A DNA stretch of 64,000 nucleotides from Minisyncoccota bacterium (GCA_028714635.1 JAQTLZ010000003.1:21237-85236); one strand, 5' to 3'; shown: positions 1 to 57,765, numbered from the stretch's first letter. Notes: generated by a model not told the origin, from the letters alone. Program-made: numbers and translations.

Positions 1-83
1 GAATTTGAGGATCTCTGGCAGATGAGGATTGCGACCAACTTGGATCTTTTTCCATATATGCTCAATAATATCAAAAGCTCAAC

Positions 84-111
84 AAAAAATCCCGCCGAAG
101 CGGGATTTTTT
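84..111. terminator. Bidirectional intrinsic terminator hairpin AAAAAATCCCGC-CGAA-GCGGGATTTTTT
   Basis: Perfect 12-bp stem with a GC core and a 4-nt loop, with an A-run upstream and a T-run downstream. It lies 27 nt after the stop of the minus-strand RRM gene. Confidence 0.7.
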
Positions 112-137
112 GTCTTTTGGGAACTTACTAAAATTAA

Positions 138-422
138 TTAGTAGTTTCCTCGAGGAGCACGTGGAGCGCGAGGTTCCATAGGTCGAGCCTCATTTACGGT
201 GAGGGTTCGTCCATCAAGTTCCTTGCCATTCCACATGTTGATTGCAGCTTCTGCACCAGCATCGTCAGACATTTCGACGAAACCGAATCCTTTTGATCGG
301 CCAGTCATCTTGTCCATGATGATAGTAGCTGAAGTAACTGCACCTGCTTGTCCGAAAGCATCTTGCAATGCTTGCTGACTTGTAGAGTAGGAAATCCCAC
401 CTACGTATAGTTTCTTAACCAT
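138..422 (-). CDS. RRM-type RNA-binding protein (glycine-rich RNA-binding protein family)
   Basis: MVKKLYVGGISY...SKGFGFVEM carries the RNP2 (LYVGGL) and RNP1 (KGFGFVEM) motifs. The track ORF 138..488 has a 22-codon N-terminal extension that family length argues against, so I trimmed the start to ATG 422. Confidence 0.85.
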   Translation of the reverse strand: MVKKLYVGGISYSTSQQALQDAFGQAGAVTSATIIMDKMTGRSKGFGFVEMSDDAGAEAAINMWNGKELDGRTLTVNEARPMEPRAPRAPRGNY

Positions 423-537
423 GTAGCAAATGTATTCTTCTAAAAATGTTGTAAGGCGACCTTCTCTATCGCTTGTTTGCCGAAACACTTAAAGTGCATC
501 TGCTACCAAAACTTATGAGAAAACTCTTACAATGGGT

Positions 538-554: not shown

Positions 555-594
555 GAAAAAAGCAAGCCCAGGCACCTAATTTAGGTGCCTGGGC
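555..594 (-). terminator. Intrinsic terminator for the GT8/giant-gene transcript
   Basis: Perfect 11-bp GC-rich stem GCCCAGGCACC-TAATTTA-GGTGCCTGGGC at 566..594, followed on the minus strand by UUGCUUUUUUCC. Confidence 0.7.
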
Positions 595-605
595 AAGTCT
601 CGAGC

Positions 606-634
606 GGAAAACATACTATATATGTATGTTTTCC
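606..634. other. Second perfect 11-bp hairpin (GGAAAACATAC-TATATAT-GTATGTTTTCC) overlapping the last codons and stop of GT8 paralog 1
   Basis: Perfect inverted repeat seen directly in the sequence. It sits in tandem with the terminator hairpin. Confidence 0.5.
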
Positions 635-1521
635 GCCTCCTTTAGATTCTCCATCCATTCGTCGTAAAACGGGCTTTCCTTTTTCCACGGCTTTACAGCA
701 AATCCCGCGAAATGGAGGACTGCTTGCGAAAAATCTTTGGGAGAATAGGTTGGAATGTCATTTTGTTCCTTTGCCATTGTATCTATTGCAGAGAACCCTT
801 CTCTTTCCACTTTCTCCATAATTTCTTTCGTCTTTTCAGGAGATAATGATACGGGCACAAAATGATTATATGTTTCGGGAAGCAGTCCCCAGTTTCTATA
901 AAAATAAAGATTGAAAATTGGCTGTTCGCCGTATTTGCTAAGAATGGCAAAATCAGAGATCAAAGCCGAACAGATATCAAAAGAGTTATCTTTGATTATG
1001 TCGCTCGAAAAGGTGAAGACCCCAGTATTGAATGACCTCTGTCTCAGATCAAACTTACTAGTGAGATTTTGGAAACAAATCTGTTTTTGCCCATCCCACT
1101 TCTTCGGCTCAAAAAACGGATGGGTAAATTGATGGGAGAGCGGAGCGGCATTCATATCTTCGGTTGCCCAAAAACCTTTTAATTTGGACAGCTCCTGGAG
1201 CGAAGAGCGCACCATAGTGTCGGCATCTAAAAAGACGATGTGTTGCCATTGCCGGAAGAAAGGGGTGAGAAGATAAAATTTCCCCAACACAGACGGATGA
1301 CTATAGATACTACCTCGGATAGAAAGAAAATTGGAAACGTGGTGAATAAAGATATTTTTTTCATTAAACCACTGAAGTTCTGGAGCATTTTCTGGAACTT
1401 CGTAGGCGATAAGACAGTAATCTCCCTGCCAGCTTCCTCTGCGGTGAGCGCTCCCAAAAAGCTGTTTCGCATGTTCGAGAAAATTACTATCAGCAAGCGT
1501 TACTAAAACAGAGTCTTTCAT
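616..1521 (-). CDS. Glycosyltransferase family 8 (retaining UDP-sugar transferase), paralog 1
   Basis: Carries the DxD motif IVFLDADTMV, FNTGVFTF and the C-terminal HFAGxxKPW motif typical of GT8 (glycogenin/RfaJ-like). It is paralogous to 1548..2369 and 61410..62390. The start could instead be ATG 1551 (ATGA overlap with the upstream stop); I chose 1521 by paralog alignment (MKDSVLVTLAD). Confidence 0.7.
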   Translation of the reverse strand: MKDSVLVTLADSNFLEHAKQLFGSAHRRGSWQGDYCLIAYEVPENAPELQWFNEKNIFIHHVSNFLSIRGSIYSHPSVLGKFYLLTPFFRQWQHIVFLDADTMVRSSLQELSKLKGFWATEDMNAAPLSHQFTHPFFEPKKWDGQKQICFQNLTSKFDLRQRSFNTGVFTFSSDIIKDNSFDICSALISDFAILSKYGEQPIFNLYFYRNWGLLPETYNHFVPVSLSPEKTKEIMEKVEREGFSAIDTMAKEQNDIPTYSPKDFSQAVLHFAGFAVKPWKKESPFYDEWMENLKEAENIHI

Positions 1522-1547
1522 AGAGATTAATGGTGCCTTTGTTAAAA

Positions 1548-2369
1548 TCATATCTCAAGAGATTCGGCTTCCGCAAGATTTTCTTTCCATTCGTCATAAA
1601 ACGGACTAGTCTTATCCCACGGCTTCTTCGCTAACCCAGCAAAATGGACGATACTTGCATCTTTGGCATGTTCGATATTCTCGGAATCACTTCGAGTTGC
1701 AGAAATAAATCTATTGAATTTTTCTGGTAAAGGATCCCAATTTTTGTAGAAAAATAAATTTAAAATCGGTTGGTCGCAATACCGCTCTATCAAGTAATAG
1801 CACTCGAAAAGTTCGGAAATGCGGGCAAATGTATCAGGAAGTACGAGGGATGATGGAAACGACAGCACGCCTGAATTAAAAGAAGGAGTAGAAAGATCAA
1901 AGTTTTTCTTCAAATCTTTGAGCATATTTTCTGTTACCGCATCCCATTTGAAAGCATCGAATGTCGGACTAAAAAACTGCCGTTCAAGCGGAGCATTTTC
2001 CATGTCATATGATGCAGAAATACCTTCCCCTGCCGAAAGCTCTTCTAGAGAAGCTCGAACAATAATATCCGCATCAAGAAAAACAATTTGCTTCCACTGT
2101 CTAAAAAAGTTGGTGAATAGGTGAAATTTTCCAAACTGCGCGGGTAGACGGAATACTCCACCATCTTGTTTTTTCAAAACTGGCCAGGGACAGGCGTGGA
2201 TGAAAATGCCTTTTTCTCGAAACCACAAAAGTTTTTCGTGGGGCACATCGCAAGCGATGAGTGCGAAATCACCTTTCCACTCGCCTTTATGATGCGCACT
2301 TCCAAAAAGCTGTTTCGCCTGGTCGAGGAAACTGGAGTCAGCGAGAGTTACGAGAACCGAATCTTTCAT
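1548..2369 (-). CDS. Glycosyltransferase family 8, paralog 2
   Basis: MKDSVLVTLADSSFLDQAKQLF..., IVFLDADIIV (DxD), FNSGVLSF and HFAGLAKKPW. It begins 40 nt downstream of the giant gene with no terminator between. Confidence 0.75.
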   Translation of the reverse strand: MKDSVLVTLADSSFLDQAKQLFGSAHHKGEWKGDFALIACDVPHEKLLWFREKGIFIHACPWPVLKKQDGGVFRLPAQFGKFHLFTNFFRQWKQIVFLDADIIVRASLEELSAGEGISASYDMENAPLERQFFSPTFDAFKWDAVTENMLKDLKKNFDLSTPSFNSGVLSFPSSLVLPDTFARISELFECYYLIERYCDQPILNLFFYKNWDPLPEKFNRFISATRSDSENIEHAKDASIVHFAGLAKKPWDKTSPFYDEWKENLAEAESLEI

Positions 2370-2408
2370 ACCGCTATATTTTCAGAAAACGGGAAATTGC
2401 GCAAGAAA

Positions 2409-5400
2409 CTATGGAGTGGCAGGCGCGTCAGACGGGGGTGGAGTTGAGTCTGAAGGAGGAGGTGTCTCTTCTTGCGGAGGAGGCGGAGTATCTTCTGGCG
2501 AGACTTCTGGTGCGGGAGTTTCGGTGACCTCTCCCGATTCATCTGGAGTTGGAGTCACTTCGGGAGATTCAGCTGGTGATTCTGCTGGAGTCGGAGTGGG
2601 AGTTGTCTCTTCCTCGCCTCCGCTTACCTCTGGAGAAGGTGTTGGTGTCGGAGTTCCTGATGAATCACCGCCTCCGGAAACTTCTGGAGTGGGTGTTGCC
2701 TGCCCAGTTCCCGCCCCGTCGTCCGACAGGGGTGTTGAACTAGGAATCGGTGTTGCATCTACCGTAGGAGTTGGAGTTGCTGAAGATACATTATCCGCAC
2801 AATCACCATCCTCGCTTCTCAACACTCCATTTTCGGTAAAGACACAAACAGGATTTCCGGTCTTTCTGTCGTAGATGACCACTCCAGTTTTGGAAACATC
2901 GGCAGAATTTTTGATAGTAAGATTATCAACGACAGCATTTTTCGCTTTCAAATCAATTGTTTCTACACTCTGGAAGATCCCGGCGATAGCAGTGAGTCTC
3001 TCGACCGCAAGATTTTTCACGTAGGAAATCATGTCGGTCATAACGATACCGAGAGATTCAAACGAGCCTCGGACAGAATCTGACACTTGTGAAAGAGCGC
3101 TCGAAGCAACAGATGCCGTGATTGATGAAGAAGAAACCGCTCCTTGCTTATTCTCGACGAAAACAAGAACGGTGTTGTCGGAAGAATCATAACTTCCAGA
3201 AAATGCTTCGAGTGCTAGACCAACAGAGTCTTCATTTGATGACGCCTTCTTCCCAACGCCCGCTACAGATGAAAGAGAAATCCTATCTCCAATACTAATC
3301 GCGCCTCCTTCAAGGTTTACTTTCACAGGCACGCGACCAGAGAGAGCGATCGGCACTTTCCTGTCATTTGGGAAACGATTGTCGCCAAAACCTCCAAGTT
3401 CAACTCCGGGCTTAGTAGAGACAATTCCAAGGAGCGGAGCATTCTCCGATCGTCTCGCCGTTTTTACAAAGACAGGATTGTCTAGGTCAAGAGAAACAAT
3501 TTCTGCAGCAGAAAGTTCGTCATCTTCAGTTGGATACCTTTCTGCAAGGTCGGTGGAAGTGATTGAGGTAGAGTTTGCATAAATAGTTCCGGCAGTTGTA
3601 GCGGCTGAACAATCTCCATTGTCATCTACACAAAGCCAGCCGTTTGAAACCTGGACATTTGCTTGATTGGTGCCGTCACCGACAGTAAGAGCTTGCGGAG
3701 GAGTAGAAGTTCCAATACCAACAAAAGAAGTACTGGCTCCAATACCTCCAAGAATAATCGAGTTGTCTTGATCTGCAAGCGCGCCGTTACCCAAAACAAC
3801 TGAATTGCTTACCCCACTACCCACAAGGGCAGCGTAGCCGATGATCACGTTAGTATTTCCACTCACTGTCCTTCCCGCACAAGTTCCGAGGATGATGTTA
3901 CTATTTCCGCTCACCGCATCAGCGCCTGCCTGGAACCCACCAATGTAGTTATAGTTTCCGGACACGCCACAGAGGCCTGCGCAAGTTCCAAGCACCACGT
4001 TGTCGGTCCCATCTCCCGCTCCGGTGATGTCATTGCCCCACGCACAGACACCTCCGATAAAATTACAAAAGCCGACCACTCCACAATATCCCGCCTGTGT
4101 TCCCAAAACAACGTTATTCTGCCCAATTCCATTTCCCGCGTTATCATTTCCCCATGCAGCGGTTCCCCCTATGAAGTTGCAGCTTCCCTGAATTCCACAA
4201 TAACCGACACTATCTCCAAGAAGAACATTTTGAACACCTGAAACACCAAACGCTCCAGTATATCTACCGATTACTGTATTATCATTTCCTACTATCCCGC
4301 AATACCCCGCGCAGGTTCCAAACACTACGTTATTAGAGCCGACTCCCGTTCCCTCCGTATCATTCCCCCACGCGCAGGTACCCCCGATGAAGTTGTTACA
4401 GGCACCACTTGCAAGACCGCAAAGACCTGCGCAGTAACCGAGAATAGTGTTGCACGAACCGGTGCGGCCATTTTGCCAATTTCCTCCGGCATATTCACCT
4501 GCGATGAAGTTATCGCTTCCGTCTACTCCGTCAGTACCTGCTCCAGCAAAAGTTCCGATAATGGCATTAGCATTTCCAGATACCCCATAGCGACCAGCAA
4601 AAGTTCCAAGCGCAATGTTGTTGTTACCAGTGCCTCCTCCTGTATCTTGCCCCCACGCACAGACACCTCCGATAAAGTTATTCGTACCACACACTCCATA
4701 AAGGCCAGCGCGAGTACCGAGAATAGTATTGCACGAACCGGTGAGAGAATAGTATGCGGCACAGACTCCGAGGACGGCGTTGGAAGAACCCGTGACACCA
4801 TTATAGCCGGCCTGGGAACCAATAATAGTATTTTCTTGTCCTGAAACTCCAAGGAGACCGACTTGAGAACCAAGAAGAGTGTTGCAAGCACCGGAGACTC
4901 CTTGAGCCCCTGCATTCGATCCAATCAGAATGTTATCATCGGCCGAAATTCCATACTGCCCAGCGAAAGATCCGAGAATAATAGCCCTGTTACTAACTCT
5001 GCCACTGGTCCAACTTCCTCCAGCATTCTGGCCTGCAATGAAGTTCGCGTCGCCGCAGACTCCTCCAAATCCGGCGGCGGAACCCGCAATGAAGTTGTCA
5101 TTACCCTGCAAAGAAATGAGTCCGGCGGTATAACCGATGACTGTATTTCTATCACCACACGCGCCACCATAAGCAGCATGGAAACCGAGAATGGCATTTT
5201 TGTCCCCTTCAATACCGCAGAAGCCAGCGCTGGTTCCGAGTACCACATTATCCGTTCCATTACTTCCACTCTGCCAATCGCCTCCGGCATAAGAACCGAT
5301 GAGGGTGTTATCCGAACCACACAGTCCCTTGAATCCGGCTCGGTAACCGATAAGAGTGGCGTAGGTACTGTTGAGACCATTTGTCCAATTAGCTCCAGCC

Positions 5401-8400
5401 TCTGTACCGGCAATGAAGGAATTATCTGTACACACGCCATTATTGCCGGCATTCGTTCCAAGAATCGTATTATCGGTATGTCCTGCAGTAAAGTTTTGAA
5501 AATTTGAAAGGGCATTTGCTCCTATAACAGTGTTGTAAGAACCGCCCAGTCCTCCAAGTCCAGCTTGATAGCCGATGACAGTATTACCTGTGTTGCAAAT
5601 ACCCGCATAAGCTGCTTTGTACCCGATGGCGGTGTTGTAATTGCCATCACCTCCAGTAGCCGAAGCTCCCCATGCAAGATTTCCGAGGGCAAGGTTTTCT
5701 ATTCCGCAGATTCCATTCTGTCCAGCTTGATGTCCGATGGCAGTATTAAACGAACCACAGAAAGTTGACCAATTTGATCCGGCATCTTGACCAATGAATG
5801 TGTTGCCGGGACCGCAGACCCCACAGAAACCTGCGTACGAACCAATGAGAATGTTGCCATCTTGCCCCGCGCAAATTCCACAGAAGCCAGCTTGATAGCC
5901 GATGATAGTGTTGCATGCTCCGGTGCGACTACTTGTCCAATCTGCGCCAGCTTGAAATCCGCCGATAAAGTTGTAAGAACCGCATACGCCACAGAGGCCT
6001 GCGTTCGCACCCAAGAGCACGTTTTCGTCTCCGTAGACGCCACAGTAGCCGGCGCACATCCCCGCAATGAAGTTGTTGCTTCCGACGTTTCCACAATAGC
6101 CCGCTTGGTAGCCGAGGATAGTATTTTTATCTCCTGTGGTTCGTCCGCTCTGCCAATCAGCCGCCGCTTGGTACCCCATGATCATATTGTTGCTTGCGGG
6201 AACTCCAGCAAGGCCAGCGCCATCTCCAAGGATTACATTTCCGTTAGCACTTACAAAGTTCCCGCTAACATCCACCCCGTCCACCAAAAATGTTCCGCTG
6301 ACATTAACATCGCCCGCGACATCAAGGGCGTAACCGGGAGTAGTGGTACCGATGCCGATGTTTCCGTTATTTGCTATGTAAAATTTCGTCGTCGTTGAGA
6401 CGCCATCAGCAGTGACGAAGTTTATCGCTCCGCCATTATCAGCTTCAAAATTGAGATCGCCCGCCGATGTGATGCCGACCCCCGCGCCTCCAGCCGCCGT
6501 ACTAAAGAAAGAGTCGTCTGGGAAAATAAGTTTGTTTCCGGTGCCGGAAATTTTAATATTGCCATTTACTTCCAATGGATAGCTCGGATTGGTGAGACCG
6601 ATACCGACATTGACAGCATCTGCGCCCGTTCCACCCAAGACGATGCTGCACGACGAAGAAACGATGGCGTTGTGACCAATCGCTGTTGCATTGGTCAATG
6701 CACCCGAAGCGACATCCGCTCCGGAACCCAAGGCGAGGTTATTGTCGCCAGTAGTATTCGTCGCCCCAGCTTTATATCCAAGAAAAGTATTATTGCCGCT
6801 CCCACTCGTTGTGAGATACCCAGAGCAGGTGCCGAGGAAAATGTTTTCATTCCCTGAAGGACCAGACCAGCCAGCACAGGTGCCGATCAGAATATTGTCG
6901 ACTCCGGAGCTTCCACAGAAGCCAGCTTGGGTGCCCGCGATGAAGTTGCTGCTACCAGCAATTCCGCAGAAGCCAGCGCAGTATCCGAGAACAGTGTTGT
7001 ATTGACCACCTCTTCCAGACTCCCAATTTCCTCCGGCAGAAGTACCACCAATGAAATTGTTTGAACCGCAGACTCCGCAAAAACCGGCGCAGTAACCAAT
7101 GATTGAGTTATCATCCCCCGTAACTCCGTAATAACTGGCGTTACCACCCATAAGAGCATTGTAATTTCCAGTAATTCCGCAGTAACCGGCACTGTAACCA
7201 AGAAGCGTGTTGTTGATTCCCGTTCGCCCACTCTGCCAGTTGCCTCCGGCAAGCGTACCGATAAGAGTGTTGTCATTGCCGCAGACTCCGCAGAAACCAG
7301 CGCAGTGGCCGATGATAGTGGAATAAGCTCCGTTAAATCCATCCGTCCAATTAGCTCCAGCCTCAGTGCCGGCAATGAAGTTGTTGTATCCATCGATACC
7401 GCAATAGCCAGCGCAGGTGCCAATAATAGTATTGTCTCCGCCTGTCATGCCGCTCTGCCAGTTTGCTCCGGCAGATGAGCCGATAACGGTTGTGTTCCAG
7501 CCGCAGAGGCCTTTATAGCCAGCACAATAGCCAAGAATGGTATTCTGACCTCCCGTAAAACCGCTCTGCCAGTTTGCTCCGGCATAGGAGCCGATAACGG
7601 TTGTGTTCCAGCCGCAGAGGCCGCAATAGCCAGCGCAGATACCAATAATAGTATTCTCACTTCCTGTAAAACCGCTCTGCCAATTCCCTCCTGCACAGGA
7701 GCCGATAACGGTTGTGTTCCAGCCGCAGAGGCCTTTATAGCCAGCACAATAGCCGAGAATGGTATTCTGACTTCCTGTAAAACCGCTCTGCCAGTTTGCT
7801 CCGGCATAGGTGCCGCCGATCAAGTTATTGCTCCCATTGATTCCGCAATAGCCAGCGCAGGTGCCGAGTACCACGTTGTCGGTCCCAGTCGTTCCTGAAA
7901 TATCGTTCCCCCAAGCATTGTTACCAATAATTGAGTTACTACCTCCTTGCATCCCACAGTACCCAGCGCAATGCCCAAGGAGAACATTGTAAGAACTGGC
8001 TCTTCCACTTTGCCAGCAGGCTCCCGCATCGGTGCCGATAATGACTTGGTCGCTGCCACAGAATCCACGAAGGCCTGCACGCCTTCCGATTAACACCCCA
8101 TCTGAACCTCCAAATCCAGACTGCCAATTTGAACCAGCTTCTTTACCAATGATGGTGTTACCATATCCAACAACTCCACAATAACCAGCACAACTGCCGA
8201 GAATAATGTTGTCGGTACTAGTGAAGCCTGACTGCCAATTTCCTCCGGCATATGTACCGCCAATGAAGTTATAGGAACCAGCCACTCCGCAATAGCCCGC
8301 ATCAAGACCAAGGATGGTGTTCGAGTTACCACTAATCCCACAAGTGCCAGCGTTGACACCTATAATAATGTTGCAGACCCCGCCCATTCCACTCTGCCAA

Positions 8401-11400
8401 TTTCCTCCGGCATTCGTGCCAATAAGTGTATTATCCGAACCGCAAACTCCGCAGTAGCCGGCACAAGAACCAATGATAGAATTGTTACTTCCTGATACTC
8501 CACAGTAGCCCGCACAGGAACCGATAAGTGAGTTTGAACTTCCCGAAACTCCCCGAAAACCAGCTTGATTTCCAAGGAGAAGATTGTTAGAACCGGTAAA
8601 TCCTGAAGTCCAATTTGCTCCGGTGTTCGTACCAAGAAGCGTGTTGCCACTTCCACACACACCGCAATAGCCAGCGCCACAACCACCGATAAAGTTATTA
8701 TTTCCAGAGATTCCGCAGAAGCCAGCGCAAGTGCCAAGAATTATGTTGTCAGTACCGGTTCGCCCACTCACCCAGTTCGCCCCAGCTTGGTTACCGATAA
8801 GTGTATTCACATTTCCACAAACTCCGCAGAGACCAGCATATGAACCGAGAATGACGTTGCCGGATGCCGAGATACCGCAGAAGCCTGCTTGATAACCGAG
8901 GATGGTGTTGCATGCGCCTGTGCGTCCGCTCTGCCAACAAGCACCGGTTTGTACGCCGGCAATGAAGTTACTAGGGCCAAAGATTCCGCAATAACCGGCA
9001 CAGGTGCCAAGTACTATGTTTCCATTTCCAGTGCTTGCAGTTGTCCTTTGATCCCCCCACGCACTGTCACCCACAACAAAGTTGCTCGTCCCACAAATAC
9101 CACAGTAGCCGGCACGATAACCGAAAATAGTGTTGCACGAACCGGAATTCGCACCGTTCCAATTACCACCGGTCTCATAGCCACCCAAGAGGTTGTTCGA
9201 ACCGCACACACCGTTGTAGCCGGCGTGATATCCGAGGAGAACATTATTGTTTGCTCCTACAAATCCTCCGCCAAAATTCACACCATTCACAAAATAGCCA
9301 CCTGAGACATTCACATCTCCTACCACATCAAGATCGTAACTTGGAGTAGTGGTGCCGATACCAACCTTTCCGTTATTCAAAATCGTAACCGGAGTGAGAC
9401 CGTTTGTCGCAAATGTAATCTTGCCGCTACCGCTGAAATCATCATCTGCAGCAAAGGAGAGATCGCCAGCCGCTGTCATACCGCTTCCTCCACCAACAGC
9501 AGTACCGATGAAAGTACCGTCTGGGAAATAAAGACCGTTGCTTCCGCCTTCAATTTTTATATTTCCATTTACGTCGAGGGCATGATCCGGAGTAGATGTG
9601 CCGATACCAACAAAAGTACAAGCACCGCCCAAAACTATAGCGTTGTCCTTTCCTACGACAGCGTTATAACCGATTGCCGCGGAATGAATAAGACCATCGA
9701 CTGCAACGTCTGCTCCATCGCCTAAAAGAAGAAGGCTCGAACCGCAGACATTGCTTATGCCCGCAGAAACTCCGACGAATGTGTTATTCCCACCAGTTGT
9801 ATTAGCATTGCCAGCATTCAGCCCGATGAAAACATTACTACTTCCCGAAGTATCGCCATTGCCTGCTACAGAACCAAGAAAGACGTTATTCGTTCCAGAA
9901 GTTCCCCCCGCTCCAGCATTTACTCCTGCCATGAAGTTGCCGGAACCGGAGATACCGTTCATTCCTGCACCTGTTCCAAGAATAATGTTTTGAGTTCCCT
10001 CTCTACCTGATTGCCAATTCGCTGCGACACACGAGCCGATGATGATATTGCAAGAACCGCAAACTCCGCAAAATCCTGCACAAGTGCCGAGGATAATATT
10101 ATCGCTCGCAAAAATTCCGCAGTAGCCGGCACAATGTCCAATGATAGTATTGAAATCGCCGCTATACGTGCTCTGCCAATTTCCTGCAACACAGGTGCCG
10201 GCAATAAAGTTATCGTCTCCACAGATTCCGCAATAGCCGGCGCAGTGGCCGAGTATGACGTTGCAATAACCTGAAATTCCGCAATAACCGGCACAAGCGC
10301 CGCCGATGAAGTTAAAATCTCCCGACACACCATAGTAAGCAGCGTAATTTCCGAGAATACTATTCCCATTACCACAAAGTCCGCAGGCTCCCGCAGAAGG
10401 ACCAATGATAGTGTTGTTTCCTCCCATCCTCCCGCCTACCCAGTCCCAGCCGGCAAAAAACCCGAGAAGCGTATTGTCATTCCCGCAGACTCCATGCTCT
10501 CCAGCACCGGCACCAATAATGTCATTAGCAACTCCAGAAACCCCGCACGCTCCGGCCGAAGCTCCAATAATGGTGTTGAAGTAACCAGTCCTTCCGCCCG
10601 ACCAATCATAGCCAGCACAAACGCCTGCGATGAAGTTGCAGGAACCAACTATTCCTTCATAGCCGGCGCAGGTGCCGAGGATAACGTTATTATTTCCAGC
10701 AGAACCACCGTTCCAACTAGCACCAGCATTAAAGCCGATGGCTGTGTTGTAATCTGCACCTGTATAAAAACCACAGAAAGCGGCGCACGTTCCGAGAGCT
10801 ATGTTGTTATTGCCACAAAATCCGCCACCCCAACAAGCACCAGCGGAAGTACCGGCAACGAAGTTATTATTAGCACAAGTACCTTTGTAGCCAGCGCAGG
10901 TGCCGAGAAAAGTATTGTTAGCACCACCATAACCGCCCTGCCAGCAAGCACCAGCCGAATAACCGATCAGCGTGTTATAGCATGCTCCATTATAGAGACC
11001 ATTAAACCCGGCGCTGTCACCAAGGATAATGTTACTAGAACCACAAAATCCACCTGTCCAATTTCTAGCCGCACACGAGCCACCAATAAAGTTGTCTGAA
11101 CCGCACACCCCGCCCGCGCCCGCATGATCGCCAATGACAGAGTTACTGCTTCCGTAGAGACCGTTAAAGCCAGCAAAATTTCCGAGAATAACATTGCTGC
11201 CTCCCGGGAGTCCCGCCTGCCAATTACCTGCGGCGCAGGTACCGCCTATGTAGTTGCCACTGCCACCGACACCAGCCGCACCAGCGTAAGCACCGAGAAT
11301 AGTGTTCGTGGTACCATTATTTCCACTATTCCAAACTCCTCCCGCTCCCACGCCTCCGATAAAGTTTGAGCTTCCAAAAACTCCGGACGCTCCAGCACTT

Positions 11401-14400
11401 GTTCCAATAACGACATTTGAACTTGTGGTAATCCCGCAAAGACCAGCATTTGTTCCAAAAATAACATTATTTGAACCAGCCACTCCGCAATACCCCGCGC
11501 AGGTTCCCAAGACCACGTTGTCGGTTCCGACTCCTGCTCCAGTTGTATCATTTTTCCAAGCACAGCTTCCACCGATGAAGTTATTACTCCCACAAATCCC
11601 GCAGAGACCGGCATTTGTCCCGATAACAGTGTTATTAGTACCGGCATAAAGAGAGCAAGAACCTCCCCATGAGTAATCTCCTAAAATCGTGTTAGAGGAA
11701 CCCGCCACCCCACAAAATCCTGCGTGATTCCCGATGACAGTATTCGTACTTCCAGTAAGACCTGCGGTATCACCACCCCACGCGCTCGTCCCGCCGATGA
11801 AGTTGTTGTCAGCTCCGCTTGCGAGACCAGAGTAACCAGCGCAAGAACCGAGAATGGTGTTACTTTGACCTGCATATGTTGAACCCCAATTTGCTCCGGC
11901 GCATGCGCCGATGATAGTGTTGTACCAACTTCCCTGTTTTCCTCCCGTTCCTGTTGCTCTACCCAGACCAGAGTTCGCCGCTTGATAGCCGATAACGGTA
12001 TTGTATTGACCATACGTATCAGTAGTATCAGCACCCCATGCTTCTACCCCGGCGATAAAGTTGTTTTGAACAGCAGTGTTCAATCCGCAAAAACCCGCTT
12101 TCGTCCCAAGCACGGTGTTGTCATTAGCATTCAAACCATAGAAAGCAGCTTGATAGCCGAGAATAGTATTTCTTTGACCATTGATATTGCCACCAGCAAC
12201 AGCTTCCGAGCCGAGAATGGTGTTGTCGGTTCCTCCGCCTTGAGTGGAAGAGGCGACTTGATAGCCGATAAAGGTGTTGCGACTTCCGCCAAACCCGCAC
12301 GAACCGGATTGTGTGCCTAAGAAAATATTGTCGGAACCACTGACGCCGCAATATCCCGCTTGGTAGCCAATAATGGAATTTTGGTTTCCTGCAATTCCGG
12401 AATAGCCAGCACCGGCACCAAGCACAACATTGCATCCTCCAGTGAGTCCGATGACATCGTTCCCCCACGCACTTGAACCAGCGATAAAGTTTTGACTCCC
12501 GGCGATACCGCAGAGACCTGCCGAGTAGCCAAGAACAACGTTTTGATCCCCGCTCTGACCAGATTCATCATCCCCCCAAGCACCCGGACCACCGATAAAA
12601 TTAAAATCTCCCGCTACGCCGCAGAGACCAGCGTTCACGCCAATCACAGTGTTGCAACTTCCCGCTATTCCGCAAAGTCCAGCTTGTGTTCCAAGCACCA
12701 CGTTGTCATCTCCCGTTCCCGCGCCTGTCGTATCATTCCCCCATGCATTATCCCCGATGATGGTATTTTGATTTCCCCCAATTCCACCATAACCAGCGCA
12801 GGTTCCCAAAATGAGATTGTCATTACCAGAAGTTCCAAATCGCCAGTTCGCTCCGGCACAACTACCAATGAGAGTGTTATCAGAACCACAGACTCCGCCA
12901 TAACCAGCGCGGCGGCCAATGAGCGTAGTGTAATTTCCGATACGGCTCGATCCCCAGTTCCCTCCCGCGTCAGGACCGAGAAGCGAGTTATTGTTTCCGT
13001 AGACCCCGGCATAACCAGCATTGTAACCAGCAACAAAGTTATTATTTCCCGTGATGCCGTTATAACCAGCAGAATCCCCCAAGACAATGTTGCTTTGGCC
13101 ATTCGTACCAGTCGAATCTGCTCCCCACGCGTTATAACCGGCGATAAAGTTTTTATCTCCGGTGATACCGCAATATCCGGCGGCCGAACCAAGCACGATG
13201 TTATCCGTACCAGTTGCGGTTCCGCTTTCATCATCACCCCACGCGCACGCTCCACCAATAAAGTTACAGCTTCCCGCAACTCCATAATACCCAGCACAAG
13301 TTCCAATAATCACATTCGATCCTCCTTCAGCAATTTGTCCGGCGTTGTAACCAGCGTGGTCGCCGATGATCGTAGAAGATGCGGCACTCGAAAAATATCC
13401 GGCGTATGGACCGAAGATGGAATTGCCACTGCCAGTCGTTGATGCGGCGGCATAATATCCGATCGCAGAATTGTAAGAACCGGTCGTCGTTGCTCCCACG
13501 AAAGTGCCGAGAAGGAAGTTGTTGTCTCCAGAGTTGCCAAAACCAGCGTGATCTCCGAGAATAATCGTGCTTGAACCCGTGTTGTTATATCCGGCGCAAG
13601 AACCACCAATAAAGTTGTTGGAACCGGTGTTACTTAGGCCCGCGCAGAAACCAATGATGGAGTTGCAAGATCCGGTGTTTTGAGCACCTGCTGAAACACC
13701 GAGAAAAGAGTTATGGTCGCCGGTGTTGTCACTGCCAGCATACGTTCCGAGAGCTACGTTATAGTCACCTACATTATTAAAACCGGCGCCGTTACCCATA
13801 AAGTTGTTTATGTCGCCGCTATTGTACATACCAGCTTGGTCACCAAGAAAAACATTACCCAAACCAGTATTGTGCTGACCAGCACAACCGCCAACAAAAG
13901 TATTATAAGAACCCGTGTTAAATTCCCCCGCATGCCAACCTCCAATAAAGTTTTCGGATCCAGTTGTCGAAGCGGCGGCATAATATCCGAGAGCGACATT
14001 TCGAGAACCGGTCGTCGTTGCTCCCGCGAAAGTGCCGAGAAGGAGATTGTCAGAGCCGGTAACGGAGCGGGAGCCGGCACACTGACCTGCGATAAAATTA
14101 TAATTTCCAGAAACACCCGCGGCGCCAGCGCAAACACCGAGAGCGATATTGCCTGTTCCTGATCCTGGAGAGGTAAAGAGTATTGTGCCACCAATACCGT
14201 ACCCCCCGCTTATGTTCGCGTTCCCGACAACATCAAGAGCTTGTGACGGGTTCATAAGCCCAATACCTACTCGCGCTAGTGAAGTGTCCACATAAAGCTG
14301 ATCGGTGTTGACCGCAAAATCTCCCGTGGTGCAAAGACCAATGTTCAAATTCTGCCCCGCCACCGGTGTGAGTGTCAGTGCCCCAGTTCCTGTCGTGATT

Positions 14401-16979
14401 GAACCGGAGGTTGAAAAATTAATTGAAGTTGAATCGATAAGTACCGAACCAGTGCCAACTTTAAGCGCGCCTTGGACCCAAAGATTGTTGGCAATGGTTG
14501 AAGTGCCGGTACCATTTACATTCAAAAGTCCCGCAAGAGTTGAACTTGCGGTAGCGCATGTGCCGACAAAATTTCCCGCGGTCAAAGTCCCAGTAAATGT
14601 TTTCGCGCCGTTGATCGTCTGCGCACCTTCGGTCATTACAAAATTCGCATCTGCTCCCGCGTCTGGAATAGTGTAAATATGAGCTGCGCCTTGTGCAGCA
14701 TTCGTGATTAATGTTTGATAGTCGCCTGAATTTGCAGTTGGGCCAAATTGCAGAACTCCAGACAAAGCGGATGAGGGATATAAACTTAATACTCCTTTAT
14801 TTCCAGTTGATGTTCCCACATTGAGATATGTCTCTACAGTTCCTGAAGAGATGGTCAACAGTTTTCCACTGCTTGGAGAAAGTGTGATGAGACTTCCGCT
14901 ACTTGGCACAATCGAATTCGCCTTGATACCGTTTGAACCGAAATCTTGCGCCTGCGAAGTCGCGCCGACAACCGCGCCGTTTGCAGTCAGATATGAACCG
15001 GCGGGTTGTTTGTTGTTAAAGGTATTCCAGTCGGTTGAGGAAAGTGTTCCTGTCGCGGAAGTTCCAGCGAGTCCGAGGGTCAAGGCCTGACCTGAAATAG
15101 TGAGACCATTTATGCTGTTGGTAAGGGTAACGTCGCCGGTATTAGTGCCGGAGAGATTTGAGGCCGACAAAGTTCCTGAGAACAATCCGTTGCCAATAAC
15201 GCTCAAAGCTTGTCCAGGAGTGGTTGTGCCGATGCCGACGTTGACCGCATTTCCTCCCGTGCCTCCGAGCACAAGAGAATTCGAAGCTCCGACAATTGCA
15301 TTGGCGCCGATTGCAGTGGCATTAGTGAGAGCAGAAGATGCTACGTCGGCATTGTATCCAATGAGAGTAGTGGAGCTACCAGTTATATTGGTAGCTCCAA
15401 CGTTGCGTCCAAGAGCAGTATTCCGCGAGCCAGTGGTGTTGTTGAAAAGTGCAGACTCTCCGTCGGCAGTATTGTTGGAACCCGTAGTGTTGCTGTAGAG
15501 GGATCCAAACCCGCTCGCGGAATTTTGTACACCAGTAGTGTTGCTGTAGAGTGCAGAGTATCCGTTCGCGGTGTTGTTGATTCCTGTGGTGTTACTCAAG
15601 AGTGCATTGTTTCCAGTGGCAACGTTGTAACTTCCTGTGGTGTTGCTAAAGAGCGCACCATACCCGTCAGCGGTATTACTGCCACCTGTGGTGTTATTGT
15701 AGAGTGCGCTGTCTCCATTTGCGGTATTTAGGGTCCCTGTTGAATTTAAGGAGAGTGCATAAAATCCGCTTGCGGTATTGCCATACCCGGTGGTATCGTT
15801 CCGGAGTGCGTAGTATCCGTTCGCAGTATTCTCGCTACCACTGGTGTTATTAAAGAGTGCATTGTATCCAGTCGCGCTGTTGTAGCTGCCTGTAGTGTTG
15901 CTGGAGAGAGCTTGGTATCCTAGAGCAGTATTGTAATTCCCCGTAATACTTGTATTCCCCGCCCCCACACCAAGCAAGGTATTGCCTGTTGCAGTCAAAA
16001 CATCGAGGACAGTATTTCCAGCAATTTTATACACTCCACTCACATTTGCGTTGCCAACAACATCAAGCATTTGCGAAGCCGTGGTGGTACCGATGCCGAC
16101 TTTGCCAGCAGAGAAGAAAAGAGTTGAGGTGCCCGACACTGCAGTGCCGGTCGCGCCATAAAAAGCTGCTTGTCCGGTTAATCCGGAATTCACTGTCCCA
16201 CTCCCGCCCGCCGTAATGCCAAGCGTAGAAGTCGCAACCCAAGCAGGCACTCCTGAAACCGAAGAAAGGACGTACCCTTCAGTTCCGATGTTTCGTTTTG
16301 CGAGAGAACTAGTCGTGTTTGCATAGAGAATATCGCCAACAGCATACGTGGTAGTACCAGTACCTCCGTACGCCACGCCCAAAGTACTTCCGTGCCATGT
16401 TCCAGAAACGACTGTGCCGAGCGATGAATAGGTCGCCGAAAGATTTGGAAAAGTTGAAGTTGCAGAAGTCGAAGTCGCCGTAAAATATTCTCCAAGAATT
16501 TGTCCGACGACAGTAAATTTCGCGAACGGAGTTGAAGTTCCAATTCCGTAATTCAAAGTTGATGGATCGATGTAAATATGTTCGACGGTACAATTCGAAG
16601 TCCCCGGCGCGCATCCTGGATCGAGCGTTTCTCCCGGAGCATACGGAGTAATCGGATACGAAGCGTACGCGGGAGTTGCAGTCCAAGAAAAAATCGAGGA
16701 CGCCATTGTTTCCAGTATCGAAGAAATTTGTATCGAGAAAGGCTGGAGCGTTTCTGAAATTTTTCCAGAAAGTGGGAACGCGTTGAACGCGGAAGTTCTG
16801 GAATCCGTGAACTCCCGAATCGCAAGATTTTTAATATCGAGACTGAAGGGAAAGCTCGATTTTTTTTGAAGAGGGGTGCTGTTTTCCGAGAAAAAAGGAA
16901 GCCGGTCCAAGACAGCTTTTGCAATCAAAATGACCGCAATTACGGAAGAACTAACCTTCGATAAAACTCGGGGCTTCAT
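2409..16979 (-). CDS. Giant secreted/surface repeat protein (4,856 aa) with a signal anchor, four Gly/Cys-rich beta-helix-like repeat modules capped by tail-fibre-like motifs, and a Pro/Thr-rich C-terminal tail
   Basis: Single uninterrupted ORF with an N-terminal hydrophobic segment (VIAVILIAKAV). It contains hundreds of ~14-aa repeats (NTxxGxxAGxxxTGxxN and GYCGVxGxxNxxIG). The cap motif '...DVASxALTNATAIGxNAIV...SxVLGG...GIGTxTP..ALxVxGN' recurs four times. The C-terminal tail reads TPTPTPSPEVSGG...PPPSDAPATP. Confidence 0.9.
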   Translation of the reverse strand: MKPRVLSKVSSSVIAVILIAKAVLDRLPFFSENSTPLQKKSSFPFSLDIKNLAIREFTDSRTSAFNAFPLSGKISETLQPFSIQISSILETMASSIFSWTATPAYASYPITPYAPGETLDPGCAPGTSNCTVEHIYIDPSTLNYGIGTSTPFAKFTVVGQILGEYFTATSTSATSTFPNLSATYSSLGTVVSGTWHGSTLGVAYGGTGTTTYAVGDILYANTTSSLAKRNIGTEGYVLSSVSGVPAWVATSTLGITAGGSGTVNSGLTGQAAFYGATGTAVSGTSTLFFSAGKVGIGTTTASQMLDVVGNANVSGVYKIAGNTVLDVLTATGNTLLGVGAGNTSITGNYNTALGYQALSSNTTGSYNSATGYNALFNNTSGSENTANGYYALRNDTTGYGNTASGFYALSLNSTGTLNTANGDSALYNNTTGGSNTADGYGALFSNTTGSYNVATGNNALLSNTTGINNTANGYSALYSNTTGVQNSASGFGSLYSNTTGSNNTADGESALFNNTTGSRNTALGRNVGATNITGSSTTLIGYNADVASSALTNATAIGANAIVGASNSLVLGGTGGNAVNVGIGTTTPGQALSVIGNGLFSGTLSASNLSGTNTGDVTLTNSINGLTISGQALTLGLAGTSATGTLSSTDWNTFNNKQPAGSYLTANGAVVGATSQAQDFGSNGIKANSIVPSSGSLITLSPSSGKLLTISSGTVETYLNVGTSTGNKGVLSLYPSSALSGVLQFGPTANSGDYQTLITNAAQGAAHIYTIPDAGADANFVMTEGAQTINGAKTFTGTLTAGNFVGTCATASSTLAGLLNVNGTGTSTIANNLWVQGALKVGTGSVLIDSTSINFSTSGSITTGTGALTLTPVAGQNLNIGLCTTGDFAVNTDQLYVDTSLARVGIGLMNPSQALDVVGNANISGGYGIGGTILFTSPGSGTGNIALGVCAGAAGVSGNYNFIAGQCAGSRSVTGSDNLLLGTFAGATTTGSRNVALGYYAAASTTGSENFIGGWHAGEFNTGSYNTFVGGCAGQHNTGLGNVFLGDQAGMYNSGDINNFMGNGAGFNNVGDYNVALGTYAGSDNTGDHNSFLGVSAGAQNTGSCNSIIGFCAGLSNTGSNNFIGGSCAGYNNTGSSTIILGDHAGFGNSGDNNFLLGTFVGATTTGSYNSAIGYYAAASTTGSGNSIFGPYAGYFSSAASSTIIGDHAGYNAGQIAEGGSNVIIGTCAGYYGVAGSCNFIGGACAWGDDESGTATGTDNIVLGSAAGYCGITGDKNFIAGYNAWGADSTGTNGQSNIVLGDSAGYNGITGNNNFVAGYNAGYAGVYGNNNSLLGPDAGGNWGSSRIGNYTTLIGRRAGYGGVCGSDNTLIGSCAGANWRFGTSGNDNLILGTCAGYGGIGGNQNTIIGDNAWGNDTTGAGTGDDNVVLGTQAGLCGIAGSCNTVIGVNAGLCGVAGDFNFIGGPGAWGDDESGQSGDQNVVLGYSAGLCGIAGSQNFIAGSSAWGNDVIGLTGGCNVVLGAGAGYSGIAGNQNSIIGYQAGYCGVSGSDNIFLGTQSGSCGFGGSRNTFIGYQVASSTQGGGTDNTILGSEAVAGGNINGQRNTILGYQAAFYGLNANDNTVLGTKAGFCGLNTAVQNNFIAGVEAWGADTTDTYGQYNTVIGYQAANSGLGRATGTGGKQGSWYNTIIGACAGANWGSTYAGQSNTILGSCAGYSGLASGADNNFIGGTSAWGGDTAGLTGSTNTVIGNHAGFCGVAGSSNTILGDYSWGGSCSLYAGTNNTVIGTNAGLCGICGSNNFIGGSCAWKNDTTGAGVGTDNVVLGTCAGYCGVAGSNNVIFGTNAGLCGITTSSNVVIGTSAGASGVFGSSNFIGGVGAGGVWNSGNNGTTNTILGAYAGAAGVGGSGNYIGGTCAAGNWQAGLPGGSNVILGNFAGFNGLYGSSNSVIGDHAGAGGVCGSDNFIGGSCAARNWTGGFCGSSNIILGDSAGFNGLYNGACYNTLIGYSAGACWQGGYGGANNTFLGTCAGYKGTCANNNFVAGTSAGACWGGGFCGNNNIALGTCAAFCGFYTGADYNTAIGFNAGASWNGGSAGNNNVILGTCAGYEGIVGSCNFIAGVCAGYDWSGGRTGYFNTIIGASAGACGVSGVANDIIGAGAGEHGVCGNDNTLLGFFAGWDWVGGRMGGNNTIIGPSAGACGLCGNGNSILGNYAAYYGVSGDFNFIGGACAGYCGISGYCNVILGHCAGYCGICGDDNFIAGTCVAGNWQSTYSGDFNTIIGHCAGYCGIFASDNIILGTCAGFCGVCGSCNIIIGSCVAANWQSGREGTQNIILGTGAGMNGISGSGNFMAGVNAGAGGTSGTNNVFLGSVAGNGDTSGSSNVFIGLNAGNANTTGGNNTFVGVSAGISNVCGSSLLLLGDGADVAVDGLIHSAAIGYNAVVGKDNAIVLGGACTFVGIGTSTPDHALDVNGNIKIEGGSNGLYFPDGTFIGTAVGGGSGMTAAGDLSFAADDDFSGSGKITFATNGLTPVTILNNGKVGIGTTTPSYDLDVVGDVNVSGGYFVNGVNFGGGFVGANNNVLLGYHAGYNGVCGSNNLLGGYETGGNWNGANSGSCNTIFGYRAGYCGICGTSNFVVGDSAWGDQRTTASTGNGNIVLGTCAGYCGIFGPSNFIAGVQTGACWQSGRTGACNTILGYQAGFCGISASGNVILGSYAGLCGVCGNVNTLIGNQAGANWVSGRTGTDNIILGTCAGFCGISGNNNFIGGCGAGYCGVCGSGNTLLGTNTGANWTSGFTGSNNLLLGNQAGFRGVSGSSNSLIGSCAGYCGVSGSNNSIIGSCAGYCGVCGSDNTLIGTNAGGNWQSGMGGVCNIIIGVNAGTCGISGNSNTILGLDAGYCGVAGSYNFIGGTYAGGNWQSGFTSTDNIILGSCAGYCGVVGYGNTIIGKEAGSNWQSGFGGSDGVLIGRRAGLRGFCGSDQVIIGTDAGACWQSGRASSYNVLLGHCAGYCGMQGGSNSIIGNNAWGNDISGTTGTDNVVLGTCAGYCGINGSNNLIGGTYAGANWQSGFTGSQNTILGYCAGYKGLCGWNTTVIGSCAGGNWQSGFTGSENTIIGICAGYCGLCGWNTTVIGSYAGANWQSGFTGGQNTILGYCAGYKGLCGWNTTVIGSSAGANWQSGMTGGDNTIIGTCAGYCGIDGYNNFIAGTEAGANWTDGFNGAYSTIIGHCAGFCGVCGNDNTLIGTLAGGNWQSGRTGINNTLLGYSAGYCGITGNYNALMGGNASYYGVTGDDNSIIGYCAGFCGVCGSNNFIGGTSAGGNWESGRGGQYNTVLGYCAGFCGIAGSSNFIAGTQAGFCGSSGVDNILIGTCAGWSGPSGNENIFLGTCSGYLTTSGSGNNTFLGYKAGATNTTGDNNLALGSGADVASGALTNATAIGHNAIVSSSCSIVLGGTGADAVNVGIGLTNPSYPLEVNGNIKISGTGNKLIFPDDSFFSTAAGGAGVGITSAGDLNFEADNGGAINFVTADGVSTTTKFYIANNGNIGIGTTTPGYALDVAGDVNVSGTFLVDGVDVSGNFVSANGNVILGDGAGLAGVPASNNMIMGYQAAADWQSGRTTGDKNTILGYQAGYCGNVGSNNFIAGMCAGYCGVYGDENVLLGANAGLCGVCGSYNFIGGFQAGADWTSSRTGACNTIIGYQAGFCGICAGQDGNILIGSYAGFCGVCGPGNTFIGQDAGSNWSTFCGSFNTAIGHQAGQNGICGIENLALGNLAWGASATGGDGNYNTAIGYKAAYAGICNTGNTVIGYQAGLGGLGGSYNTVIGANALSNFQNFTAGHTDNTILGTNAGNNGVCTDNSFIAGTEAGANWTNGLNSTYATLIGYRAGFKGLCGSDNTLIGSYAGGDWQSGSNGTDNVVLGTSAGFCGIEGDKNAILGFHAAYGGACGDRNTVIGYTAGLISLQGNDNFIAGSAAGFGGVCGDANFIAGQNAGGSWTSGRVSNRAIILGSFAGQYGISADDNILIGSNAGAQGVSGACNTLLGSQVGLLGVSGQENTIIGSQAGYNGVTGSSNAVLGVCAAYYSLTGSCNTILGTRAGLYGVCGTNNFIGGVCAWGQDTGGGTGNNNIALGTFAGRYGVSGNANAIIGTFAGAGTDGVDGSDNFIAGEYAGGNWQNGRTGSCNTILGYCAGLCGLASGACNNFIGGTCAWGNDTEGTGVGSNNVVFGTCAGYCGIVGNDNTVIGRYTGAFGVSGVQNVLLGDSVGYCGIQGSCNFIGGTAAWGNDNAGNGIGQNNVVLGTQAGYCGVVGFCNFIGGVCAWGNDITGAGDGTDNVVLGTCAGLCGVSGNYNYIGGFQAGADAVSGNSNIILGTCAGRTVSGNTNVIIGYAALVGSGVSNSVVLGNGALADQDNSIILGGIGASTSFVGIGTSTPPQALTVGDGTNQANVQVSNGWLCVDDNGDCSAATTAGTIYANSTSITSTDLAERYPTEDDELSAAEIVSLDLDNPVFVKTARRSENAPLLGIVSTKPGVELGGFGDNRFPNDRKVPIALSGRVPVKVNLEGGAISIGDRISLSSVAGVGKKASSNEDSVGLALEAFSGSYDSSDNTVLVFVENKQGAVSSSSITASVASSALSQVSDSVRGSFESLGIVMTDMISYVKNLAVERLTAIAGIFQSVETIDLKAKNAVVDNLTIKNSADVSKTGVVIYDRKTGNPVCVFTENGVLRSEDGDCADNVSSATPTPTVDATPIPSSTPLSDDGAGTGQATPTPEVSGGGDSSGTPTPTPSPEVSGGEEETTPTPTPAESPAESPEVTPTPDESGEVTETPAPEVSPEDTPPPPQEETPPPSDSTPPPSDAPATP
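7450..7810. repeat. About 3 tandem copies of a ~120-bp near-identical direct repeat inside the giant gene
   Basis: The unit CCGCTCTGCCAGTTTGCTCCGGCA...GTTGTGTTCCAGCCGCAGAGGCC... recurs at ~7450, ~7561 and ~7670. It encodes 40-aa repeats ...ILGYCAGYKGLCGWNTTVIGSxAGxNWQSGFTG... Confidence 0.8.
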
Positions 16980-32940: not shown

Positions 32941-32990
32941 CCATTGTGGATTTTGTCAGAGGCAAGGGAAAGGTAGAGGAGGAACGAAGT

Positions 32991-39535: not shown

Positions 39536-39551
39536 GAAAATAAATAAAGAC

Positions 39552-39577
39552 AAAAAATCCTTCTCGATGAAAGAAGG
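39552..39577 (-). terminator. Intrinsic terminator immediately upstream of the acidic-protein gene
   Basis: Minus strand reads CCUUCU-UUCAUCG-AGAAGG followed by AUUUUUUG. It lies 17 nt before ATG 39535. Confidence 0.6.
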
Positions 39578-39745
39578 TGGCGAAGAGGCGCAAGCGCGTA
39601 CTCTTTAATCTCACATCCTTTACTCGAGGACTGACGAAACATACTTTCGTGCGCGGTATTCGGACTTCCCTCTTTCGAGAGTTACCGTAGCGGTACTGTG
39701 CCGGAATTACACCGGACTTCCCCAACGCAACGAAATAATTTTTCA
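39552..39745 (-). ncRNA. Candidate structured leader / riboswitch-like attenuator or small RNA of unknown class
   Basis: A ~190-nt minus-strand segment with moderate GC and several local hairpins (CCGG-UGUAAUU-CCGG, CUCU-CGAA-AGAG, ACGAAA-GUAUG-UUUCGU). It carries two copies of GGGAAGUCCG and ends in a terminator just before a gene start. No convincing protein-coding potential. Confidence 0.35.
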
Positions 39746-39895
39746 AAAACAACAATCAAAACCGGAAACGTATAAGGATATTATATGTCACAGAGAAACA
39801 CGTGCAAGAGTGGATTACTACGCACAGCACACATTAAAATAAAAGCTAGGGAAAAATTTTTAAAGCTCATAAAATAAGGAGATTCCTGGAATTAG

Positions 39896-52243: not shown

Positions 52244-52297
52244 CGGAAAAATTGCTTAGTATTAATATCTCATTATAGCAGAAAATCTGCCTCGCAA

Positions 52298-56572: not shown

Positions 56573-56586
56573 GCAATTAGCATACT

Positions 56587-57753: not shown

Positions 57754-57765
57754 AATCAATTTAAA

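Follow-up and report, generated by a model that had tools for sequence, protein, structure and literature searches.

Two glycosyltransferase genes directly follow the gene of a giant putative surface protein. Do they act on that protein, or do they stand beside it for another reason? This question is raised by a stretch of 64,000 nucleotides (nt) from a metagenome-assembled genome of Candidatus Pacebacteria, which belongs to the candidate phyla radiation (CPR)/Patescibacteria (GCA_028714635.1, JAQTLZ010000003.1:21237-85236). We refer to the whole stretch as the window; its source was named by exact matches in the database. The gene order on its minus strand is giant gene, GT8-1, GT8-2, hairpin terminator, and RRM gene. 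An earlier note on this sequence had suggested, as a plausible function, a dedicated adhesin-glycosylation module and had pointed to GT8 enzymes of the GlyD/GlyE type. We favor a different reading, to which we assign a probability of about 0.5: the pair would be soluble, glycan-elongating or glycan-varying GT8 enzymes which derive from a glycopolymer family and came to lie beside the giant gene through a lineage-specific rearrangement.

Layout of the locus

The giant open reading frame (ORF; 2409..16979, minus strand), which has a homologous giant gene in one related genome (locus L001, see below), was called with a length of 4856 amino acids (aa). Its stop codon occupies 2409-2411, and the ATG of GT8-1 lies at 2369, which leaves 39 nt between the two genes (2370..2408, minus strand). 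As the earlier note had stated, no terminator separates the giant gene from the GT8 genes: a terminator scan found no terminator-like site in this spacer, and its folding energy of -7.7 kcal/mol (z +1.5) corresponds to no stable structure. GT8-1 (1548..2369, minus strand) encodes 273 aa. The ORF of GT8-2 was called at 616..1551 with 311 aa, and the ATG at 1551 overlaps the GT8-1 stop codon by 4 nt. Translation more probably begins with the ATG at 1521 (616..1521, minus strand; 301 aa), because the predicted N-terminus then reads MKDSVLVTLADS as in GT8-1 and the length equals that of the database entry P0003.

The GT8 genes are closed by an intrinsic-terminator-like hairpin at 555..594 (minus strand). 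Its stem (594..566) has 13 bp, of which 9 are G-C, and is followed by a T run. With -29.5 kcal/mol and z -6.0, it was more stable than all shuffled sequences (0/200 equally stable), so that the strong terminator had been placed correctly after the second GT8 gene. Downstream of it, and outside the unit, lies a gene for an RRM-type RNA-binding protein (RRM_1; 138..422, minus strand; 94 aa from the MVKK start). In a promoter scan, promoter-like sites in the window were not commoner than in shuffled sequences. The best site (2951..2922) lies within the giant gene and is nearly conserved in L001, which is uninformative because the site is located in constrained coding sequence.

Family, motifs and fold of the two enzymes

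Both proteins match PF01501 above the cut-off of 24.3 bits (GT8-1: E-value (E) 6e-19, 69.0 bits; GT8-2: E 1e-17, 64.7 bits), and they share 46% identity. No hydrophobic segment of transmembrane grade is present in either enzyme, as the maximal Kyte-Doolittle values over 19 residues are 1.13 and 0.93, respectively. Thus, the description of two paralogous, apparently cytoplasmic GT8 enzymes directly 3' of the giant gene holds. Across the family alignment, DxD (D99-A-D101), FNSGV, and H242...KPW show no or almost no variation. Here, DxD and FNxGV agree with the motifs given before; the C-terminal motif had to be corrected to HxxGxxxKPW, which is one residue longer than HxxGxxKPW.

An AlphaFold2 model of GT8-1 was built from 57 homologues (alignment A4) and reached a mean predicted local distance difference test score (pLDDT) of 93.5. 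When this model was compared with the PDB by Foldseek, the top 50 matches were all GT8 structures. Among them were the C-terminal GT8 domain of WbbM (E 8.5e-15), glycogenin (E ~1e-12), LgtC (E ~1e-12), GlyE (E 2e-11), and the Skp1 galactosyltransferase. All GT8 fold matches have TM-scores of ~0.6-0.68 (GlyE ~0.63) and identities of 16-22%. Hence, by fold and catalytic motifs, the two proteins are members of the GT8 family with a GT-A fold. As a guide to the acceptor, the fold search was uninformative since every GT8 structure matches about equally. Donor-facing active-site residues are likewise not predictive of specificity in the GT8 family (PMC10709319). Most likely, the pair represents soluble, cytoplasmic, metal-dependent hexosyltransferases of the retaining type, for which retaining transfer from a UDP-hexose is predicted.

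The sequence search against solved structures gave one significant match, which was WbbM (E 5.5e-7), and phmmer found no match to GlyE at E<=1. As the fold is also no closer to GlyE than to WbbM, glycogenin, or LgtC, the GlyD/GlyE-type label was not upheld.

Usual genomic setting of the subfamily

At 36-43% identity and with the whole query (100%) covered (E 1e-43 to 1e-56), homologues of the pair are spread over CPR bacteria, DPANN archaea, Thermoplasmatota, Bacteroidales, and several lineages of proteobacteria; 257 representatives (clusters) score at E<=1e-30. To describe their surroundings, 72 loci from the genome scan, the close relative being left out, were searched with the window's own proteins. 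Homologues of both the Wzm-like and the Wzt-like gene were found in 40/72 loci and in 35/50 of those with a length of at least 12 kb, and a homologue of the GT2_TM_C gene was present in 46/72. Tandem GT8 genes were seen in 37/76 loci. Four neighborhoods, three others and the window's own, were checked individually and contain the same type of cluster. Shared are a protein of ~590 aa, GT2+GT2_TM_C, GT4, one or two GT8, a GT2 of ~290 aa, an ABC ATPase, and an ABC-2 membrane protein. The GT8 genes form tandem pairs in the three other contexts; the window's cluster has one GT8.

The surface-glycopolymer cluster of the window occupies 54788..63884. It encodes a 594-aa protein, a GT2+GT2_TM_C protein resembling AglJ/polyprenyl-phosphate-hexose synthase, a Wzm/Wzt-like ABC transporter, a second GT2, a GT8, a short-chain dehydrogenase, and an NTP_transf_5 protein. 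A further protein resembles the AZOBR_p60025 family ("cell surface glycopolymer formation") with 145.5 bits, just below the 150-bit cut-off. The GT8 of the cluster is the third paralog of the window, P0041 (61410..62390, minus strand; 326 aa). The cluster runs past the end of the window and continues into GT4-rich genes, as seen in locus L002. Neither the pair at 616..2369 nor its counterpart in L001 lies within a cluster of Wzm/Wzt-like transporter, GT2_TM_C, GT2, and GT4 genes.

From this context, the default role of the subfamily is therefore the cytoplasmic assembly of an exported surface glycopolymer, which agrees with WbbM as the nearest solved relative. WbbM acts in the formation of the Klebsiella O-antigen D-galactan I (PDB 6U4B). 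That glycan pathway depends on an ABC transporter, and clusters of this kind are where the subfamily is usually encoded. It shares the DxD and the C-terminal His/KPW motifs with the pair. Unlike the pair of single-domain enzymes, WbbM has two domains and ~600 aa, and identity is ~19%; moreover, the pair is detached from the transporter cluster and lacks the basic extension of the subfamily.

The subfamily also occurs as fused double-GT8 proteins of 633-676 aa and, in one case, as a multi-glycosyltransferase of 1736 aa with GT8-like regions at both ends and internal copies of the basic extension motif (P0209, P0212, and P0214 are among these proteins).

A clade without the C-terminal extension

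In alignment A4, the AExIDL motif is followed by a C-terminal extension of 30 aa or more in 54/57 family members. The extension comprises about 50-90 aa (median 69 aa) with a median net charge of +12, and some examples have hydrophobic stretches. P0041 retains the basic/hydrophobic extension, and its 19-residue Kyte-Doolittle maximum is 1.87. By analogy, the basic extension may be a membrane dock; the counterpart we have in mind is the basic/aromatic C-terminal segment of LgtC, which presumably holds that enzyme at the membrane.

GT8-1, GT8-2, and both L001 copies end at the AExIDL motif and have no extension. Homology searches and an exhaustive search of the representatives yielded two further proteins of this kind, P0199 (278 aa) and P0210 (266 aa). 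The six extension-less enzymes, which come from three genomes, form one clade in the neighbor-joining tree (99/100 bootstrap replicates). Within it, GT8-2 of the window groups with P0199 (67/100) and GT8-2 of L001 with P0210 (65/100). Both P0199 and P0210 belong to GCA_040384425.1, on separate contigs; P0199 is flanked by recG and a response regulator, P0210 by mreB and a murA-like gene. No giant gene and no glycan gene was found in either neighborhood. Members of the clade have thus apparently been relocated repeatedly in these genomes. We regard the pair as new members of a known family, within a small, derived, extension-less clade.

Recurrence of the neighborhood

The link between giant gene and GT8 genes was checked from both sides, with 73 genome loci starting from the GT8 enzymes and 80 metagenome loci starting from the giant protein. 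From the GT8 side, a giant ORF with a Pro/Thr-rich tail was found next to GT8 genes in GCA_028711065.1 only (L001, of which L005 is a duplicate), and the order giant gene, GT8, GT8 is kept there. Nucleotide identity between the window and L001 is ~78-79% over GT8-1 and the C-terminal part of the giant gene; at the protein level, GT8-1 reaches 81%. The second GT8 slot (window 616..1521, L001 10833..11684) shows 41% aa identity, and its DNA could not be aligned. Together with the pairings in the tree, this identity indicates that different paralogs fill the second slot in the two genomes, which looks like the rapid turnover of a glycan-diversity islet.

In L001, two additional genes (8299..9989) are located between the giant gene and the GT8 pair. 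The first encodes a 325-aa protein with no match in Pfam, NCBIfam, or the PDB, which may be a TagF-like polyol-phosphate transferase. The second encodes a cytidylyltransferase of the IspD/TarI family, which scores under the cut-offs for both IspD and ribitol-5-P cytidylyltransferase; a cytidylyltransferase in such an islet is typical of glycopolymer chemistry. L001 lacks a hairpin terminator where the window has one, and the difference appears to be a recent insertion or loss. Beyond the GT8 pair, L001 continues with the RRM gene, followed by GroES/EL and other genes; the flanks in the window contain RRM, SBP_bac_5, RNase J, MFS, and CAP genes.

The RRM protein (94 aa) is identical in the window and L001. 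With its upstream leader of ~100 nt, the RRM gene (window 80..530, minus strand; L001 11716..12165) has 93% nucleotide identity, in comparison to ~78% for its neighbors, and the leader may be a conserved regulatory 5' untranslated region.

For the search from the giant side, the C-terminal part of the giant protein was used. After an N-terminal hydrophobic signal or anchor, the protein consists of Gly/Asn/Cys-rich, fibre-like repeats with 167 Cys and closes with a conserved module and a tail. The Pro/Thr-rich tail of ~130 aa that had been described is present, as the last 130 aa contain 25.4% P, 17.7% T, 13.1% S, and 11.5% E, in comparison to 1.1% P and 1.1% E in the other 4726 residues. By composition, the low-complexity stretch rich in Pro, Thr, Ser, and Glu begins at aa 4734 (window position 2780) and comprises ~123 aa (aa 4734-4856; 2412..2780, minus strand) with the terminus ...APATP.

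The module precedes the tail directly (aa 4419-4733, 315 aa; 2781..3725, minus strand) and was delimited by 78 database homologues, their alignment, and the metagenome scan. It contains the motifs LAE.YP ... ALSGRVPVKV ... GDRI.SS..GVG.KA ... YD..T..P.C...G.C and is frequent in CPR surface proteins; the scan confirmed it in at least 394 metagenome stretches, and Pfam has no family for it. In an AlphaFold2 model, residues ~58-190 have a pLDDT >90 and form a core with weak similarity to trimeric phage cement/decoration proteins (Pam3, T1, and the base of phi29 gp8.5; best E 6.5e-4, TM-score normalized by target (TMt) ~0.5). A sub-threshold Phage_cement_2 match in Pfam and a weak BppL_N match of the giant protein are consistent with a cement-like core. 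This similarity fits a fibre-like surface protein, with a putative adhesin role. In the homologues, a tail rich in T, S, P, and E follows the giant-type module very often and frequently ends in TP.

The 394 metagenome occurrences yielded 80 loci (L081-L160), which were kept for the neighborhood analysis. GT8 genes were detected with the family hidden Markov model at E<=1e-5, and the same search recovered 5/5 GT8 enzymes of the window and L001. At the metagenome loci, a GT8 gene was found beside the module-bearing gene in 0/80 cases. In 34/80 module proteins, P+T+S account for at least 50% of the last 40 residues of the tail; at least 2 kb of downstream sequence is available at 58/80 loci, and 23/80 combine both. 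As there are 34 tails and no GT8 locus among the 80, the tail is a trait of the module family and widespread without an adjoining GT8. A Pfam scan of 103 downstream neighbors revealed no glycosyltransferase family among the 25 commonest. Instead, these neighbors include LamG_3, IS200-type transposases, 23S-IVP, GAPDH, and TPR proteins, and Wzy_C was found three times.

Concanavalin-like LamG_3 proteins of ~700-800 aa lie directly 3' of module genes in 14/103 cases (L084, L095, L098, L099, L131, L135, L138, and others). IS200-type transposases account for 9/103 and 23S-rRNA-IVP proteins for 7/103 of the neighbors. In the window itself, a small cytochrome-b5-like protein (51839..52255, minus strand; open frame of 139 aa) also has a linker rich in Pro, Thr, and Ser and is distant from any GT8 gene.

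Comparison with known glycosylation systems

GlyD/GlyE: The enzymes of the pneumococcal PsrP locus (PDB 5GVV/5GVW) share the GT8 fold with the pair and are cytoplasmic proteins encoded beside a very large surface protein. GlyE extends a GlcNAc-Glc primer made by GtfA/B and Gtf3 (PMC12656782), and GT8 enzymes of serine-rich repeat protein (SRRP) loci only elongate a glycan that GtfA/B have begun (PMC12656782, PMC6973325). The SRRP loci further contain SecA2/SecY2/Asp genes and a substrate with Ser-rich repeats, an AST domain, and LPxTG (PMC6973325). In contrast, the giant protein has a Pro/Thr-rich tail without LPxTG, and its remainder is rich in Gly/Asn/Cys instead of Ser-rich dipeptide repeats. 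No secA2, secY2, or asp gene was found in the flanks of the window locus or of L001, and no GT4 gene that could correspond to the priming pair GtfA/GtfB adjoins the giant gene in either. An assignment to the SRRP/GlyE type was rejected because there was no GlyE sequence match at E<=1, no primer or accessory Sec genes were found in the flanks of the two loci, and the substrate is of another type.

LgtC: The α-1,4-galactosyltransferase of Neisseria lipooligosaccharide synthesis (PDB 1GA8/1G9R) is a single-domain GT8 of similar size. Unlike LgtC, the pair has no basic/aromatic C-terminal segment, and identity is ~17-18%.

Glycogenin: This eukaryotic, self-glucosylating GT8 is also soluble and single-domain, and it glycosylates protein directly. 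The sequence match is marginal (E >=0.13), however, and glycogenin modifies its own Tyr, for which there is no sign of a self-priming equivalent here.

HMW1C and Aah/TibC: These cytoplasmic adhesin glycosyltransferases (HMW1C for HMW1, Aah/TibC for AIDA-I/TibA) act before export by the general Sec system. They are a precedent for an adjacently encoded enzyme that glycosylates a large secreted adhesin without accessory Sec. They are unrelated to GT8, as HMW1C is a GT41-like N-glycosyltransferase and Aah and TibC are heptosyltransferases.

Weighing of the readings

The reading that we favor would proceed as follows. The normal role of the subfamily would be the addition of sugars to a carrier-linked surface glycopolymer, which is exported by a Wzm/Wzt-type ABC transporter. 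In the Pacebacteria lineage, an offshoot of this GT8 would have duplicated and lost the basic C-terminal extension, and its copies would have changed their genomic positions. Here and in one relative, two of them would have come to rest directly downstream of the giant fibre gene, where they are probably transcribed by read-through from that gene, which implies co-transcription, or from an internal promoter. The pair would not initiate glycosylation on the tail of the giant protein but would extend or vary an existing glycan. Acting in trans, its most likely acceptor may be the envelope glycopolymer of the 54.8-63.9 kb cluster. We favor this course because of the family context, the 0/80 GT8 genes at related giant loci, and the scattered positions of the closest relatives. 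The recurrence in just one other genome of the scan, the change of paralog in the second slot, and the cytidylyltransferase in the L001 islet also speak for it.

Several points weigh against it. All giant-adjacent GT8 copies lack the ~70-aa extension with its net charge of ~+12, and if the extension is a membrane dock, enzymes without it would be less likely to use a lipid-linked acceptor. The pair and the glycopolymer cluster are separated by 52 kb. The order giant gene, GT8, GT8 with its tiny gaps has survived divergence to ~78% nucleotide identity. Finally, the acceptor is one that we only infer.

A putative membrane-docking extension that was lost would also suit a general cytoplasmic role of the extension-less clade, with the giant adjacency being incidental. 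The acceptors could then be several proteins (pilins or proteins with Pro/Thr/Ser-rich linkers), a glycolipid, a cell-wall precursor, or a small molecule. Such a role is in line with the clade members at unrelated loci, including the one between mreB and the murA-like gene, and with a second secreted protein in the window that has a Pro/Thr/Ser-rich linker far from any GT8. However, nothing points to any particular one of these acceptors, and the link of the parent family to exported glycopolymers is consistent. We consider this reading conceivable but doubtful.

About as probable, and thus also unlikely in our view, is the dedicated glycosylation of the giant protein. Here, Thr/Ser of the tail would be O-glycosylated by the pair in the cytoplasm and ahead of Sec export, with a priming and an extending enzyme, and the pair would be co-transcribed with its substrate. 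This proposal fits the common strand, the unstructured 39-nt gap, and the lack of a terminator before the end of GT8-2, although short gaps say little about coupling in genomes as dense as those of CPR bacteria. A relative at ~78-81% identity, with a tailed giant protein of its own, has retained the order, but the link is seen in these two related genomes only, and different paralogs occupy the GT8-2 slot. Loss of the basic extension would be expected for a soluble acceptor, and proteins or protein glycans can be substrates of GT8 enzymes, as glycogenin, GlyE, and the Skp1 galactosyltransferase among the fold matches illustrate. Against this, known SRRP GT8 enzymes only elongate a primed glycan (PMC12656782), and neither a GtfA/B-like primer nor SecA2/Y2/Asp genes are present in the flanks. 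No GT8 accompanies the same C-terminal module at the 80 loci in spite of 34 comparable tails, and the other members of the extension-less clade lie away from any giant gene, next to housekeeping genes. Together with the glycopolymer context of the family, these results weaken the suggestion of a dedicated adhesin-glycosylation module made in the earlier note.

Less probable still, we think, is a variant in which a CPR-specific GT8 clade gave up its putative membrane-docking extension and became a soluble pair of protein O-glycosyltransferases that was captured behind the fibre gene. It would decorate the tail before ordinary Sec export and would need neither GtfA/B nor accessory Sec. If this were true, the turnover of the GT8-2 slot and the cytidylyltransferase of L001 would diversify the glycan at the fibre tip.

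That the two genes are redundant duplicates losing their function, with the shortened C-termini as a sign of decay, is very improbable: long branches, the divergent GT8-2, and the lost extension would suit it, but neither ORF is disrupted, no family-invariant residue (D99, D101, H242, KPW, and FNSGV) has been lost, the structure model of GT8-1 is confident, and a truncation point shared by six proteins of three genomes points to a stable derived form.

Other observations in the window

A gene for an AP_endonuc_2/xylose-isomerase-like TIM-barrel protein (32946..34298, plus strand) forms a stretch of 56.7% GC in surroundings of ~42% and may be a recent horizontal acquisition. An AdoCbl (B12) riboswitch (39606..39747, minus strand; 60 bits, gathering score 50) directly precedes an ORF of 633 aa (37652..39553), for which no Pfam match was found.

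Implications

The contact of CPR bacteria with other microbes, to which they live attached, is presumably mediated by their giant surface proteins and surface glycans. To our knowledge, almost nothing has been established experimentally on protein glycosylation in these organisms, and on protein O-glycosylation in CPR bacteria we found only predictions for pilins in the literature. If the GT8 pair does glycosylate the giant protein, it would represent a minimal adhesin glycosylation system independent of accessory Sec. In the reading that we favor, a widely shared glycopolymer GT8 family has given rise to a small soluble clade in Pacebacteria, whose copies move around the genome. Gene adjacency in compact CPR genomes would then be a weak guide to function. 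The presence or absence of the basic C-terminal extension provides a clear, testable marker that separates two kinds of enzyme.

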